A DNA stretch of 64,000 nt from Eledone cirrhosa (taxonomy: Eukaryota). Numbering within the stretch: position 1 is the first letter of the stretch; every line of letters begins with the position of its first letter. The translations under genes were made by a program, and so were the position numbers. Of this stretch, positions 10,267 through 59,175 are shown one piece after another. Location: assembly GCA_964016885.1 (NCBI GenBank), contig OZ024746.1:55056001-55120000 (forward strand), read 5' to 3'. The notes under the pieces were generated by a model. The model was not told where the DNA came from. It saw only the letters and a list, made by a program, of their open reading frames with translations, and searched no databases.

Positions 10267-10445
10267 CGAAAACATCAGGACCCCGACGGTTGAGCTCCGG
10301 CCGTTTCGACAGCTAGATCCGAACGGATGGAGCTCTACTGTCGAGGTCCTGACTCTTTTCCTATTACCCACTCTACTACCCTAAGTATCGAGTACTCTGG
10401 TGCGTTATGGTCCACGTGTTTCCTTACCACACTTTCTTTGTTCTT
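10267..10445 (+). mobile_element. Mini fold-back PLE-end insertion, family H1 (short inverted arm plus 3' tail) in (TA)n
   Basis: TCAGGACCCCGAC...GAGCTCC is inverted against GGAGCTC...GTCGAGGTCCTGA. The tail CACTC..GAGTACTCTGGTGCG..CCTTACCACAC is shared with 26456 and 50555. Confidence 0.7.
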
Positions 10446-11239
10446 ATATATATATATATATAATGTACATGAGCGCGTGAGCGAGTATATATAGTTTTGT
10501 CTGAAAAATCCACTGGTATTAACGTGCAGAAACGCGAACACGAATAGGCACACAAATGTATATTCGCATATGCACACACATACACACTCATACATATACA
10601 TACTCAGACATACCCATAGATACACATACCCACACACATATGTATTCAGTCACATACATGTATAAACGCACTCACTGACAAACAAACTATACAATAATGT
10701 CACAGAGGAACACGTAAATATACATATACACACACATACATAAATACACACACTCACTCATACAAAAACATACCACATATACGCACTAGAACAAAAACCT
10801 ACATAAACACACATATAGAAACACACACACACATATAACAAACACATAAAATACACAGGATTCAGAGTCACACACTCTTTTCTCGCGCACACAATCAAGA
10901 CGCAACATCTCAGACACAAAGTTAAATACTCATACTCACTCATAAAAAGACATACACACACATGCACACAAATGAATGTACGTAAGCATTTGACAGACAC
11001 ACGCATGCGCACTTCTGTCAACGATACACAAACCACACACACACACACACAGAAGCAATAATGCACAACCATGGAATGAATTTATATGCACATGTTGTGT
11101 TTTTACATTTCCGTGTTTGTCTTTGTTTCCTTGAACTATATATATATATATATATATATATATATATATATATATATATATATATATATATAGTGAAAAC
11201 TGGAATTGGAACGAAAACAGAGAGGCCGTACAAACAAAG

Positions 11240-13440
11240 GTTTATTACTTTCACGCTCGCTGACCTCTATAGGGCTGAGGCTTACCGCCAGCTTCACAAC
11301 ACCCTTTTTTACCGCCCTTTATCCTCCGACCCCACTTCTGGCTACCAACAACTCGTGTCCTCCACCATCCACGAGCTGTACGCCTCCTCTCACCTCCCCC
11401 TCCCCCACATCCACCAACCTTATTGTATGCACCCCTCGCACATCCACCATCTAATTCCTCCCCAAAATATACAAACAAAATAATCCTGGCCGTCTTATCG
11501 ATCCTGCGTGCAACTGACCCACTGAGATAATTTCTGAATATTTAGACACCATCCTCGCCCCGTTGGTCAGAAATCTCCCCTCCCACATCCAAATCATGCC
11601 CTTAGCCTTTTCAACTCTTTCTCCTTCGCTCCTGGTCCCTCCCACACTCTTTTTACCATGGACATCACTTCTCTCTATACCGTCATCCCTCATAATGACG
11701 GCATCCGCGCTCTCCAGCAATTTTTAGATTTACGCCCTACCCCTTACCCCAGCACTACCACTCTTCTCCGTCTGGCTGAGTTTGTTCTCACCCTTAATGG
11801 ATTTTCTTTTCCGGGTGATATTTACTAGCAGGTCACTGGGGTAACGATGGGAACCAGAATGGGTCCAAACTATGCCAACTTGTTTGTTGGCTACGTCGAA
11901 GCCCAGATCTTCTCCCAGTACGCTGGACCGACTCTTGAGCTATACGGTCCTTATATCGACGATTGTATCAGCGCCACTTCTCTATCACGAGAACAGCTCG
12001 ACTGTTTTCTTTCTTTTGTCCAATCTTTCCATCCTGCTCTCAATTTCACCGCCTCCGTCTCCGATTCTTCTGTTGCTTTTCTAGATATCTCTCTCACCAT
12101 ATCCTCTCTACTCCCATCTATGTTAAACCAACAGACTCCCAATCTTATCTCGACTCCACCTCCTCCCATCCAACCGACACCAAACACTCCATAGCCTATT
12201 CCCAATTCCTCCGTCTTCGTCGACTCTGTAGCCAGGACGACGATTTCGAAACCCATTCCCTTCGTTTGCCTGCCTGCTTCATCTAGCGTAGATATCACTC
12301 CATCTTGATCCTAGCTGCTCTCACCCGCGCCCGTGAAAGAGACTACACCACATCCCTCTCACCTCACCCGAGCCCTCCCAACACCCGTGTTTCTTTCCCT
12401 CTCACCTACCAACCCATGATCCGACCACTCCGGCGACATATCCTCCGTTCCTTCCGTATCCTCTCTTCTGACCCCGTCACTTCTCGCTTTTTTCCAAACT
12501 CACACATTACTGCTTTTAAGCGCGCCGGAAACATCCGCGGCCTCCTGGTTTGCAGTTCCTTTTCGTCCTCTCCCACAACTCCACCCGGCTCTCATTCATG
12601 TTCCCGTTCCCGCTGCAACAGTTGTCCCTTTATTTCCACCCTCACCACTCTTACAGGCCCAAACGGGTCTTTTCGTATCAGCCATTCCTTCACCTGCACA
12701 TTGTCTATGCCCTCCGGTGTTCCCTTTGCGGGTCTTTATATACCGGACAAACGGGACGCCGTATGGCGGACCGGTTTGCCGAACATTTGAGTGACATACG
12801 ACTCGGTTTGGATACTCCTGTCACCCGTCATTTATGTTCTCCTGGTCATTCTTCCCTACATGTTACAGTCCTGGGTATCCTTTTACATCATGGATCACAG
12901 GCCTCGCGCACCAGGACTGAACAAAGCCTGATTCACCGCCTTGGACTCAACTTAGCTGCCCACTTTCTCTAATAATCCGTACATTATCACACCCCTTGAT
13001 TCCTATCGCTTTCTCTTGATCATTAGCAGCATCTCTTACTACTAATACATGCCGATACACACCCTTATATTAACATACTTTTGCTCATAGCTTCGTACTT
13101 ACATGCACACACATTCTTTTACTCACATATATACACACATTTCTTCTGAGCTCCGTACGGACCTATAATAACACACACAGACACACACACTCTAACTCAT
13201 GCTTACGCACGTGCTCAAGTATAGATCTTTTTACAAAACTGCTCTTTTTCCATTTCAGGTAGACGCCTGCCTTCCAACCCACCCGTCCCCTCAATCTATT
13301 TTATTTCTCATTCTTTCTTCTGATGAAGGACTAGCGCCCGAAACGTTAAGACCCTCAGCCTGCTATATCAAGCGTTAACCTAATATACACCTTCCATATA
13401 CTGTACCGATTGTGTTGTTATTTCTGTTTACCTTTTACAT
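11240..13440 (+). mobile_element. 5'-truncated Neptune-clade PLE (RT plus GIY-YIG EN pseudogene, 3' pLTR with hammerhead)
   Basis: Motifs LFTMDITSLYTVIPH, GVTMGTRMGPNYANLFVG, YIDD, YVKPTDSQSYLDSTSSHP, IAYSQFLRLRRLCS, CSRSRCNSCPFI and VYALRCSLCGSLYTGQTGRRMADRFAEH. Several frameshifts and stops. Confidence 0.9.
13316..13351 (+). ncRNA. Minimal type I hammerhead ribozyme (PLE-type, palindromic stem III)
   Basis: TCTT CTGATGA AGG-ACTAGCG-CCC GAAAC GTT AAGA. Stem I TCTT/AAGA, AACGTT palindrome, GUU site. Confidence 0.75.
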
Positions 13441-13494
13441 ACATACATACTTATAAATATATATATCTATCTATATACATATATATATATATAT

Positions 13495-57710: not shown

Positions 57711-58471
57711 GAAAAAGTTTTATTTAAAATTGTTGGGTTACAACGAGTAAATATTTTATAACTGATATAAAAGCACTCAACAGTTTTTGGAGTAGGTTTA
57801 CGATATTAAACAATATTATATGTGTCTCAGATTTTGCTTATAGACCTAAGAATTTTTAAACTAAGCATGGGGTCATTTTTTTCACACATGATGGATATGT
57901 GTCTCATTCATGAATACTGATATTTACATTATAATACCTAATTCATAAAAATTGATAATTCAAATGGATGAGACATAATATATTTTTAATATATTTTAAA
58001 TATACCATCTTTCTTTCTTTTTCTCCTCTACACTGGACGTGATTTATGTGTCGGCTATTTTAACTGTATCCCTTCCCTCCTTAACCTCTCACTTGTACGC
58101 TGATCATCTGTCCCCAAGCTGCCTACTATTTTTTCACTTCCTCAATATATTTCTCTCTCCCATATCTCCTTCTCTCTCTTTCTCGCTCTGTTGTTTTTCT
58201 TTACATACATCTCTTCATCTTCTTCTTTTTATCTTCGTTTTTCTTCGTCTTTCTCTCTCTATAACTGTCCTTAACAGTTTCACTACCAAATCAACTTTTT
58301 AAATGGAAGTTGCATTATTCTAAGGTATGTCAAAATTATTTATAAAACAGCTTATATATTGTATTTTGTCTGAGGAAGGCATACCATATTTTTAATATGA
58401 TATCCCAGAAATATATATAACGAAATAAATATGGTTTTATAAATATAGTTTCTATTTGTTTAATATCGTAT
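57711..58471. mobile_element. Mini fold-back PLE-end insertion, family H3 (longer copy); hammerhead at 58362-58427
   Basis: Tail 57711-57796, short arm TACGATATTAAACAA / TTGTTTAATATCGTA. Hammerhead TATTTTGT CTGAGGA AGGCATACCAT..ATGATATCCCA GAAA TATATA TA ACGAAATA. Confidence 0.8.
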
Positions 58472-58920
58472 ATATATATATAAATATATATATATATATA
58501 TATATATATATATATATATATATATATATATATATATATATATATATATATATATACATACACAACGAGATTCTCTAAATTTAATTAATAGCAGATAACA
58601 CCCAGTATGTTACGATTCAGTGTGCATGAACCGGAAACCTCGGTACCGAGAAACCAACATTTTAGTCTCACATACAATACTCTGAAATAAAGGGAAATAT
58701 CTAGGCAGCCATTCATTTATTTATTCAGGAATCCAGCTATTATATGGGTAGACATTGGAATTTCCTCCGTTACTCCCATCTAATCATTTGTGTCTTCATA
58801 ATTGAGCATTAAATAGTGTGCTTCTATAACATGCTTACAATACTCTATCAATTTATATATATATATATATATATATATATATATATATATATATATATAT
58901 ATATATATATATATATATAT

Positions 58921-59175
58921 TTCAGTATATGTTGGTTGTTTACCGACACCTCAGTATGCAGATTTGAGCACTATACGAAGCACGCAGGTTGGTTTGTTTA
59001 CTCCGGAGTAATGTAAAATAAGTAAGTCAAACATGTAAAATTTGGCTTCGTTTATTATACGGATTGCCTGAAGAGGTCACATGCATTGATGGCTGTCACC
59101 GAAATATATATAGCAGTAAATTTATAATTTATAATAAACGAAGCCAAATTGTACATGTTTGACTTACTTATTATA
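58921..59175. mobile_element. Mini fold-back PLE-end insertion, family H5; hammerhead at 59063-59117
   Basis: Arms 59018-59059 and 59130-59171; tail 58921-59012. ATTGC CTGAAGA GGT..ACC GAAA TATATA TA GCAGT. Confidence 0.78.

Follow-up and report, generated by a model that had tools for sequence, protein, structure and literature searches.

In the genome of Eledone cirrhosa, Hydra-type Penelope-like elements (PLEs) have two copies of a short hairpin in tandem, here called A and B, in the stretch that separates the hammerhead ribozyme from the start codon. Their insertions have two kinds of end: tail-less ones lie ~6 nt before A, and tailed ones ~6 nt before B. From these positions, we consider it rather probable that each hairpin serves as an RNA docking site that fixes the start of reverse transcription in Hydra-type elements, which would account for the puzzling tails of these elements and for their mirror-image ends. 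To our knowledge, the origin of tails and inverted ends in PLEs has been open for two decades, with only one element run in vitro, and we know of no conserved RNA signal named for PLEs. No description of the hairpin was found in the literature searched, a scope that ends short of subscription papers and Repbase or Dfam notes.

Hairpins and fold-backs in the window

The window is the whole 64,000-nt stretch of E. cirrhosa DNA that was analysed. All seven hairpin strings reported in an earlier note on this DNA are present where it placed them, and the copies it listed are real. Three more had been overlooked, at 56103-56123 (+), 47598-47617 (-), and 31802-31827 (-). The AGCACGC..GAGTA pairing proposed for H5 was wrong. 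The true H5 hairpin, at 58970-59009 (-), has a long loop, and its lower stem is mutated in this copy by a G-to-T change. The H5 family is normally intact (among 29 listed strings, 13 share a single intact sequence, and most of the rest are one base off). The tail-left strand had been taken for reading; the RNA strand is the tail-right one, because the hammerhead cores lie upstream on it. The features of the window, including the reverse transcriptase-endonuclease (RT-EN) frames, are as follows.

10370..10393 (+): hairpin A of H1, 30.1 bits; fold-back 10267-10444, tail-less end left, tailed end right
26508..26531 (-): hairpin A of H1; fold-back 26455-26672
50604..50627 (-): hairpin A of H1; fold-back 50556-50745, with an 80-nt tail
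31212..31231 (-): hairpin A of H3, with an upper-stem mismatch in this copy; fold-back 31147-31575
31479-31519 (+): hammerhead core in the tail-less arm of H3 fold-back 31147-31575
57775..57793 (-): hairpin A of H3b; fold-back 57713-58468
58370-58411 (+): hammerhead core of H3b fold-back 57713-58468
35103..35127 (-): hairpin A of H4; fold-back 35046-35388
35190-35235 (-) and 35288-35333 (+): hammerhead cores of H4 fold-back 35046-35388
58970..59009 (-): hairpin A of H5 in the corrected pairing, 7-bp upper stem and long loop; fold-back 58921-59181
59068-59104 (+): hammerhead core of H5 fold-back 58921-59181
56103..56123 (+): hairpin A of a further family, H10, GCUC/GAGC form with the outer pair changed in a compensatory way
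47598..47617 (-): hairpin A, diverged H3-type with one stem mutation; hammerhead core at 47672-47712 (-)
31802..31827 (-): hairpin of a further family, GCUC/GAGC with a variant 3' flank, 18.8 bits, E 0.011; TA-flanked tail 31730-31867
35432..37188 (+): decayed Hydra-type RT-EN frame, a separate insertion tied to no single hairpin family here
52766..53741 (+): decayed Hydra-type RT-EN frame upstream of an H10-like terminal repeat, 54158-54255
61457..63327 (-): decayed Hydra-type RT-EN frame with an inverted partial copy on its right
13497..15506 (no strand): H2, two tailed fold-backs (starts 13497 and 14921) without the hairpin, negative control; another PLE clade, with a CX4CxxC linker

The link of frame 52766..53741 to the H10-like repeat is tentative, and no firm tie of H10 to any reading frame was found. 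The motif had been assigned to tailed fold-back families. This holds for the four that were named, but H2 and the tailed fold-back family at 27416 have no hairpin. Other PLE families have precise tailed and tail-less ends without the motif, and therefore the hairpin cannot be a general PLE signal. Two look-alikes were rejected: a 12-nt palindrome in H5, a family that keeps the long-loop hairpin, and a tRNA-type SINE core (L035), which matches the simple pattern and lacks the bulge, the upper stem, and a TA-flanked tail.

The window contains 6 matches to the simple pattern YACTC-N5-30-GAGTRCT, whereas 200 local shuffles gave 0.31 on average (maximum 4). A refined descriptor gives 55 matches in 634 kb, compared with 3-8 in ten shuffles, and a TA run follows 20-120 nt downstream in 46 of the 55, compared with 0 in every shuffle. 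Enrichment thus reaches far beyond the few copies in the window, and the suggestion of a shared cis-signal at the arm/tail boundary of PLEs is borne out by its strong positional bias.

Structure of the hairpin and the elements that carry it

The hairpin is not the plain 5-bp stem with a free loop that the earlier note described. Its elements are a 4-bp stem (RCUC/GAGY), a 2-nt bulge on the 3' side whose first base is U (U-H), an upper stem that covaries, and an RCU that stays unpaired. Across a non-redundant set of 66 hairpins, the paired fractions for pairs 1-4 of the upper stem are 0.88, 0.73, 0.79, and 0.73, compared with 0.66, 0.46, 0.40, and 0.42 in shuffled versions (p 5e-5). This excess is seen with a 2-nt bulge only and is absent with 0, 1, 3, or 4 nt; both the upper-stem pairing and the 2-nt bulge are reproduced in 47 metagenome hairpins chosen without a pairing requirement. 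The outer pair of the lower stem is G-C in 41, A-U in 14, and U-A in 5, and a fifth pair (Y:R) is kept in the E. cirrhosa genome, not clade-wide. RNAalifold, unaided, returns the same fold, and the hairpin alignment contains 55 double-change cells versus 17.2 in shuffles. Tree-aware covariation in hairpin A yields 4-6 independent pairs only, all or nearly all in the expected direction and none significant, and the same test on hairpin B gives no support. Single hairpins have weak folding energies (-3.6 to -11.6 kcal/mol), and the minimum-energy fold differs from the hairpin in H1, H5, and the 47598 copy. Exceptions to the common form are a 1-nt bulge in one family and a variant 3' flank in several. 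Rfam gives 0 matches at E<=1 across 10 loci with hairpin pairs; in the window, no match falls on a hairpin among the matches listed (150 of 452), which are mostly microsatellite noise.

The four families are deeply diverged PLEs with Hydra-clade protein motifs and 33-42% protein identity (RT identity of H1 to H3b, 42%; EN identity to H3b, 33-42%), rather than one recently diverged family. They had been called sequence-unrelated, which is right for their DNA, unalignable save for a 14-nt match of H3 and H4 inside the hairpin, and wrong for their proteins. Since all four share the Hydra-clade motifs, the hairpin was inherited within the clade and is neither convergent nor trivial homology; judged from sequence, it is a clade-level homology kept under structural constraint. 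There is next to no chance that the motif reflects coincidence or passive homology among recently split families. The Hydra-type RTs of this genome do form one clade (9 rows, support 99, in a tree of own-genome and metagenome relatives only), and the 14 nt common to H3 and H4 would fit such a reading, but the H1-H3b RT identity, the unalignable flanks, the compensatory pair changes, the absence of positioned matches in shuffles, and the prediction of hairpin B before its discovery all speak against it.

A single ORF encodes the RT followed by a C-terminal GIY-YIG-type endonuclease in H3b (L052) and H1 (L092/L103), and in H4 (5 loci) and H5 (L171, partly L156) the tail is preceded by the end of an endonuclease. 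Pfam gave no match in the four Hydra-type pieces scanned and one weak GIY-YIG match for another clade, so the endonuclease domain is called from motifs. The linker is CxCX5C in H3b, an H4-like frame, H1, and H5. The endonuclease has no CCHH, and CxxC and CxH flank its conserved E and N. DKT replaces DKG in H3b, with D-K invariant across 24 metagenome N-termini, and R-W of an N-terminal RWK motif is invariant in 24 metagenome proteins. A putative hammerhead core precedes hairpin A by 88-112 nt in H3b, H4, H5, and H10. H1 has no CUGANGA core within 170 nt and keeps the GAAAC half and a self-complementary stem III only. Insertion into (TA)n targets was confirmed for the hairpin families. Tandem spacings are ~3.54 kb (H1), 3.7 kb (H3b), and 3.9 kb (H4), and these units are long because their 3' regions are 0.9-1.4 kb.

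The published Hydra clade is described with a C-terminal endonuclease without CCHH, a CxCX5C linker, DKT, CxxC and CxH, as well as a hammerhead, (TA)n targets, inverted 5'-truncated copies, and tails (Craig et al. 2021, PMC8557442). The families here match it in endonuclease, linker, CxxC/CxH, (TA)n targets, inverted copies, and tails, and differ in unit length, 3.5-3.9 kb versus "generally under 3 kb", a descriptive phrase of that paper. Its main text names hammerheads only and does not contain the word "stem-loop", yet the hairpin can be seen by eye, unremarked, in four of its six consensi, one with a mismatch. Among metagenome loci of Hydra type, 50 of 78 have the hairpin, with 102 sense and 4 antisense matches. 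No relative was found in viral contigs.

Two probable start sites and one end of each kind

A lies 69-103 nt after the hammerhead core, and B mostly 54-72 nt after A. Hairpin B was predicted beforehand in the E. cirrhosa genome and then found directly after the tail end in four of five families. Genome matches to B number 67 for H3b, 322 for H1, 266 for H4 (an initial H4 pattern gave just 3), and 29 for H5, with 0 in reversed-pattern controls; B of H10 had 0 genome matches. For H3b and H1, loci L275 and L276 show the B hairpin in full. A hairpin B in H2 was rejected (one read-through, in L039; 2 unlike matches to the genome pattern, both nested insertions). We note that B, just past the tail, is not copied into insertions and is hence invisible in those of the window.

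Both end types share the 6-nt offset, at a U-A-rich spot. Among 173 TA-ended junctions (63 further anchor matches, whose TA run is imperfect or absent, were set aside), the overlap is 5-8 nt in 159 (by script) and exactly 6 nt is included in 149 (by manual tally). Tailed ends of H5 are ragged, 9 of 19 being 10-11 nt out, and those of H10 are ragged too. Tails are ~55-100 nt long. Because A and B are identical in structure and in the 6-nt offset, this suggests that they do the same job.

The earlier note had offered GIY-YIG nicking or RT priming as that job. No read-through at B occurs in the fetched loci, and B is absent from the inserted ends it marks. Since B lies outside the inserted DNA, a role in priming at the RNA level would fit better, and positioning of a nick less well. 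It is accordingly very improbable that the motif acts as DNA, recognised by the endonuclease in the donor or in a single-stranded intermediate and cut 6 nt away. The nearly invariant CTC/GAG core letters would suit such recognition, and the Drosophila virilis Penelope endonuclease needed the tail for recognition (reported in PMC11167929), but a B located beyond the cDNA end and an upper stem that tolerates G-U pairs argue against it.

In the fold-back sample (624 kb; the duplicate locus L038, identical to L037, was dropped here and is counted in the 634-kb descriptor total), 90 of 93 TA-followed 3' ends are at A (41) or B (49). The hairpins might instead bind the element protein for RNP packaging or translational self-control, the ends being set by the nearest U-A pairing with (TA)n. 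Indeed, of 31 loci measured, 30 have B 10-39 nt upstream of the ATG, and T/A microhomology of 1-7 nt with the target is present at every junction. We give this reading a slim chance: AT-rich repeats are full of other TA sites, yet the ends concentrate at two; the sites used include some with 1-2 nt of microhomology only (H3b A, H4 B); and the pairing of ends described below is left unexplained. A translational role could exist in addition to priming.

All 32 clean fold-backs, 26 of them outside the window, combine one A end with one B end (p 2e-10 against 0.5), with no A+A or B+B; in loci picked by their tail, the rule holds in 85 of 86. Bases private to a copy (non-consensus) are common to both arms 3-10 times more often than in permuted pairs in H1, H3, H4, and H5 (p 0.0005 each), and not significantly so in H10 (p 0.32). 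Gene conversion or snap-back copying could be the source of these shared variants. Both results bear on the possibility that the hairpins are signals for RNA cleavage or 3'-end formation at a point 6 nt upstream, so that two kinds of RNA arise and RT primes on each at a true 3' end in a LINE-like manner. RNA processing signals typically act at a set distance from a hairpin, and the H5 and H10 tailed ends are ragged; independent RNA pools, however, predict A+A and B+B insertions and do not account for the shared private variants, and the anole element primes internally on uncut RNA (PMC11167929). We regard this possibility as quite unlikely.

Arm lengths tell on a further explanation. In 98 fold-backs, the arms are equal in 60, and the tail-less arm is longer in 21 and shorter in 17; the tailed end is marked as well, so the signal is not specific to a second, inverted arm, as had been supposed. 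Past the junction, the fold-back 57713-58468 (H3b) has a tailed arm of ~15 nt and a tail-less arm of ~650 nt. If B alone started reverse transcription and the cDNA folded back and was copied, with A (in the cDNA or bound RNA) marking where the second strand stops, is cut, or jumps, one A end, one B end, and variant-sharing arms would follow by construction. The many equal arms agree with this, and Craig et al. attribute the tail to endonuclease resolution of an intermediate (PMC8557442). It is nevertheless unlikely. Tail-less arms that are the longer ones (in an extreme example, 639 versus 19 nt) are unreachable by copying back the first cDNA, as are two tailed arms that end inside the tail, and the likeness of A and B in structure and offset suggests one job rather than two.

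Returning to hairpins as docking sites, we think it fairly likely, on sequence evidence, that two RT-endonuclease molecules on A and B of one RNA prime from opposite nicked strands of (TA)n, the tail being the A-B spacer. A transcript through the terminal-repeat/ORF junction of a tandem array would bind two RT-endonucleases, one per hairpin, and each would nick one strand of the (TA)n target. The 3' end released by the nick would anneal to the RNA over 1-7 nt, at a site 6 nt upstream of the hairpin concerned. Each enzyme would then move leftwards on this one RNA, and head-to-head joining of the two cDNAs would follow. The B-primed cDNA would contain hairpin A and the spacer, seen as the tail, and the A-primed cDNA would be the tail-less arm; hairpin B would never be copied at an end. 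For the full scheme of programmed twin priming, with one RNA, two ~30-nt docking hairpins, and two RT-endonucleases starting 6 nt upstream on opposite strands, we put the chances at about even.

Comparison with other retroelements

In LINE-1 twin priming, both target strands prime on one RNA and an inverted insertion results; the second primer finds a fortuitous match within the RNA, and there is no overlap of the two pieces. Here, in contrast, both starts would be internal and fixed by structure, and the cDNAs would overlap. Stringent LINEs also place a cis RNA structure near the priming site for their own RT (the L2/UnaL2 stem-loop, the R2 3' UTR). Theirs is a single structure, 5' of a priming site at the RNA 3' end, and is copied into the insertion, whereas the Hydra hairpins are doubled and lie 3' of internal sites, with B uncopied.

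The closest parallel is PAc, a Poseidon element of Anolis carolinensis (Frangieh et al. 2024, PMC11167929), in which RT starts at two internal sites at the terminal-repeat/ORF junction that bound the tail. Its protein is a predicted dimer, and the upstream hammerhead need not be cut. The Hydra-type elements likewise appear to have two fixed internal start sites bounding the tail; these are read from genomic ends, while PAc initiation was shown with purified protein. PAc starts inside one AC-rich stem-loop in the ORF, has no homology to the cut DNA, and makes a 30-40 nt tail, whereas here each probable start is 6 nt before its own hairpin copy, in the 5' leader, with T/A microhomology and longer tails. 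The passages of the PAc report considered here do not describe a conserved repeated structure or a one-A-one-B rule.

The result is thus a short clade-wide RNA structure, an exact 6-nt offset, and a strict rule under which every insertion has one A end and one B end; a few mutations in an assay of a kind already in use would suffice to test each of the three. If the scheme is true, a single design would account for the tails of Penelope insertions, for a tail length specific to the family, and for the inverted ends, and the hairpin would serve as a portable signal for starting target-primed reverse transcription internally. Among RTs, those of Penelope elements are most closely related to telomerase, and a structure that positions the start would therefore bear on the origin of telomerase-like template selection. 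The hairpin also offers an easy way to annotate Hydra elements and to find where they truly begin and end. Much of the (TA)n-flanked repeat content of the genome is of this type (35 of the 57 fold-backs sampled).

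A bulged hairpin at the ends of fold-backs

The host genome is 3.0 Gb in size and AT-rich, with many (TA)n runs. Self-comparison of the window reveals TA-flanked fold-backs with an extra tail on one arm, and because the tail-right strand has hammerhead cores upstream, it is taken as the RNA strand. In H3b, one of the Penelope-like element (PLE) families forming these fold-backs, the tailed side stops at the same terminal base in 30 fetched loci, save for one that stops a base earlier, and the tail-less arms of fetched loci have a single fixed start base. The seven hairpin strings that an earlier note described at the arm/tail boundary are all in place, and its simple pattern has 6 matches in the window versus 0.31 in shuffles. 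Its pairing for family H5 was wrong: in the true hairpin, the upper stem is 7 bp and the loop is long, and the copy in the window carries a mutation. The core of a tRNA-type SINE (window 59234-59462; L035:9171) matches this simple pattern by chance, making it a source of false hits.

Comparison between families shows that the lower part of the hairpin is a 4-bp stem, RCUC/GAGY, followed by a 3′-side bulge of 2 nt that begins with U; the upper part contains a stem of variable sequence and a free loop. The structure also includes an unpaired RCU. A refined descriptor has 55 matches in the window plus a 570-kb sample (8 stretches beside the window and 49 at round coordinates elsewhere), and 46 of these are followed by a TA run at a distance of 20-120 nt. 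In ten shuffles there are 3-8 matches each, none so positioned, and descriptors with other bulge sizes give 6-14. One window hairpin belongs to a separate family:

Window position 56103, hairpin with a G-C outer pair

Among 66 non-redundant hairpins, upper pairs 1-4 and the outer pair exceed shuffles (p = 5e-5) solely in the 2-nt-bulge register, with covariation counts inflated by kinship among the hairpins. The pairing is the same in 47 hairpins chosen on sequence alone, covariation is lost when partners are slid by 1-3 columns, and RNAalifold predicts the same hairpin. Single copies have low folding energies, and in some of them alternative folds are favoured. A tree test of the first upper pair of hairpin A (the first of two tandem hairpins, A and B) counts 8 and 9 changes on the two sides and 11 jointly, with 16 in an off-register control; the number of independent pairs is too small for a significant result at hairpin A, and hairpin B is unsupported in this test. 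We consider the hairpin a real feature, and its survival by passive homology hardly credible. No Rfam family for it was found among the matches listed for the window, nor at E ≤ 1 in 10 loci with hairpin pairs.

In this genome, the outer pair is mostly A-U in hairpin A and G-C in hairpin B (18 hairpins A versus L275, L276, and the H4 and H5 B matches). In metagenome elements it is G-C in both hairpins for most and U-A in both for L242 and L247.

Hydra-type host elements

L052, a long H3b copy, encodes an RT with a C-terminal endonuclease and contains DKT, a CxCX5C linker, CxxC, and CxH, with CCHH absent; these are the defining motifs of the Hydra clade in Craig et al. 2021 (PMC8557442). H1, H4, and H5 connect to a similar protein with 33-42% identity to that of H3b (H1 through two loci that lie on separate contigs and are 95% alike between ORF and tail; H4 through five loci; H5 through one full and one partial link), and a quick tree places all Hydra-type RTs of this genome in a single clade. 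A census run without the motif found 57 fold-backs. The strict descriptor matches 24 and the relaxed one a further 11, three with a Hydra-type frame; the 22 matching neither include every one of the six tailed H2 copies (a family with a different linker type) and four fold-backs that lack a tail.

The hairpin is also found beyond this genome. By eye, it follows the hammerhead in the Hydra-2_Ajap and Hydra-2_Amil consensi (file S7, Craig et al. 2021), Hydra-1_Ajap has two hairpins at its 5′ start, and Hydra-1_Crog has one with one mismatch; none was seen in Hydra-1_Obim, nor in Hydra-1_Amil, whose consensus stops short of the site. In 78 metagenome loci (the best 78 of 243 confirmed stretches), the descriptor has 60 sense and 2 antisense matches. 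A covariance model of 30 hairpins picked by hand (21 come from the same loci) has 102 sense and 4 antisense matches over 50 loci, and many of the 28 loci without a match are short contigs ending before any junction. Among 33 loci with an intact N-terminus, the hairpin lies upstream of the ATG in 31 by pattern and 1 by eye, and the last is truncated within the hairpin.

Tandem hairpins and paired ends

The order at metagenome junctions is hammerhead, hairpin A, hairpin B, and ATG. Direction of RNA cutting by the hairpins is a rather improbable role, and packaging or translation control slightly more so. The 3′ copy ends at TA immediately upstream of hairpin B in L254, L243, and L228, and immediately upstream of hairpin A in L242, L245, and L218. 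For the present genome, we predicted in advance that hairpin B follows the tail end, and matches were found for H3b (67), H1 (322), and H5 (29). The H4 pattern has 266 matches (3 with an earlier, stricter pattern), H10 has 0 in the genome, and reversed-pattern controls have 0 in every family. The position 6 nt upstream of the hairpin base is common to the modal junction intervals, which are blurred by T/A microhomology, at 8 of 9 sites, the H5 B site being the sole exception. It is included in 149 of 173 TA-ended junctions, a set that leaves out 63 other anchor matches. In an anchor-independent alignment map, 90 of 93 TA-followed ends map to A or B. One Hydra-type family (L045:9516-9653, L046:2167-3960, L081:3452-5951) has a 1-nt bulge with the 6-nt offset retained, a natural variant suited to testing the bulge.

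In the 624-kb sample, each of the 32 fold-backs that lack an inner TA run has one A end (tail-less) and one B end (tailed); one additional pair, with an inner TA run, is B+B and probably represents two insertions. Fold-backs from loci chosen by tail are A+B in 85 of 86 cases, and private variants are common to both arms in 4 of 5 families. The one-A-one-B rule implies that the two starts are coupled. Since hairpin B is absent from the DNA end that it marks, it would have to act in the template RNA (or a donor), and recognition as DNA is very unlikely. Most simply, hairpin A would act likewise, given its same shape and offset. The longer arm is A in 21 fold-backs, B in 17, and neither in 60 with equal arms. 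Priming at hairpin B followed by resolution at hairpin A is an unlikely alternative: for at least a fifth of fold-backs, the tail-less arm is so long that it cannot have been made by copying back along one cDNA.

On the basis of hairpin B acting in RNA, the coupled starts, and the long tail-less arms, we favour, with moderate confidence, priming by two enzymes. A single RNA would carry two RT-endonuclease molecules, each using one nicked (TA)n strand as primer and starting 6 nt before its own hairpin, and the two may copy overlapping parts of the RNA with displacement or sequentially. LINEs have RT-binding RNA structures, and L1 undergoes twin priming; the Hydra system would combine the action of a LINE 3′ recognition element with twin priming, and belongs to neither. 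Internal initiation at two sites bounding the tail is known from the anole Poseidon element (PMC11167929), and the Hydra clade is already described. New here are the conserved doubled hairpin, the 6-nt ruler, and the one-A-one-B rule, for which no description was found in the accessible literature searched; closed papers or supplements could contain one. How Penelope elements acquire their tail and inverted ends can now be addressed directly with a small set of mutations.

In fold-backs of three families, most arms end shortly upstream of the hammerhead core (at lengths of ~150-190 nt in H3, 150-175 nt in H4, and 123-138 nt in H10), which suggests that reverse transcription stalls at the hammerhead on uncut RNA. 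H1 is abundant and young, with its 322 junction matches and ~3.54 kb tandem arrays; the CUGANGA half of its hammerhead is absent (L092, L103), and its arms mostly end 59-69 nt upstream of hairpin A. Different Hydra families insert back-to-back into each other's (TA)n runs, forming fold-back clusters (L001, L011, L014, L015, L017, L025). The array at L003-L010 (G000:C13:38431843-38433394), with about ten 160-nt tandem units each containing an H3b arm end, tail, and (TA)n, is a satellite-like expansion of the H3b terminal piece.

Other fold-back and PLE families

H2 (window 13497-15506, 21126-22374, and 45309-47248) has a CX4CxxC linker, a hammerhead, and precise tailed and tail-less ends, and the RCUC/GAGY motif is absent. 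Within its tail of 59-61 nt, a 5-bp stem can form between a site 5 nt past the junction and one close to the end of the tail; this may be a separate signal. Another tailed fold-back family without RCUC/GAGY (window 27416-27942 and 48694-49974; L035:833-1769) combines a hammerhead-like core with a long, stable hairpin in the late part of its tail. Two more PLE families with CX2-5CxxC linkers (window 11190-13480 and 38891-41400) are Neptune- or Nematis-like by motif, and one of them is nested with inverted copies over 37785-42532.
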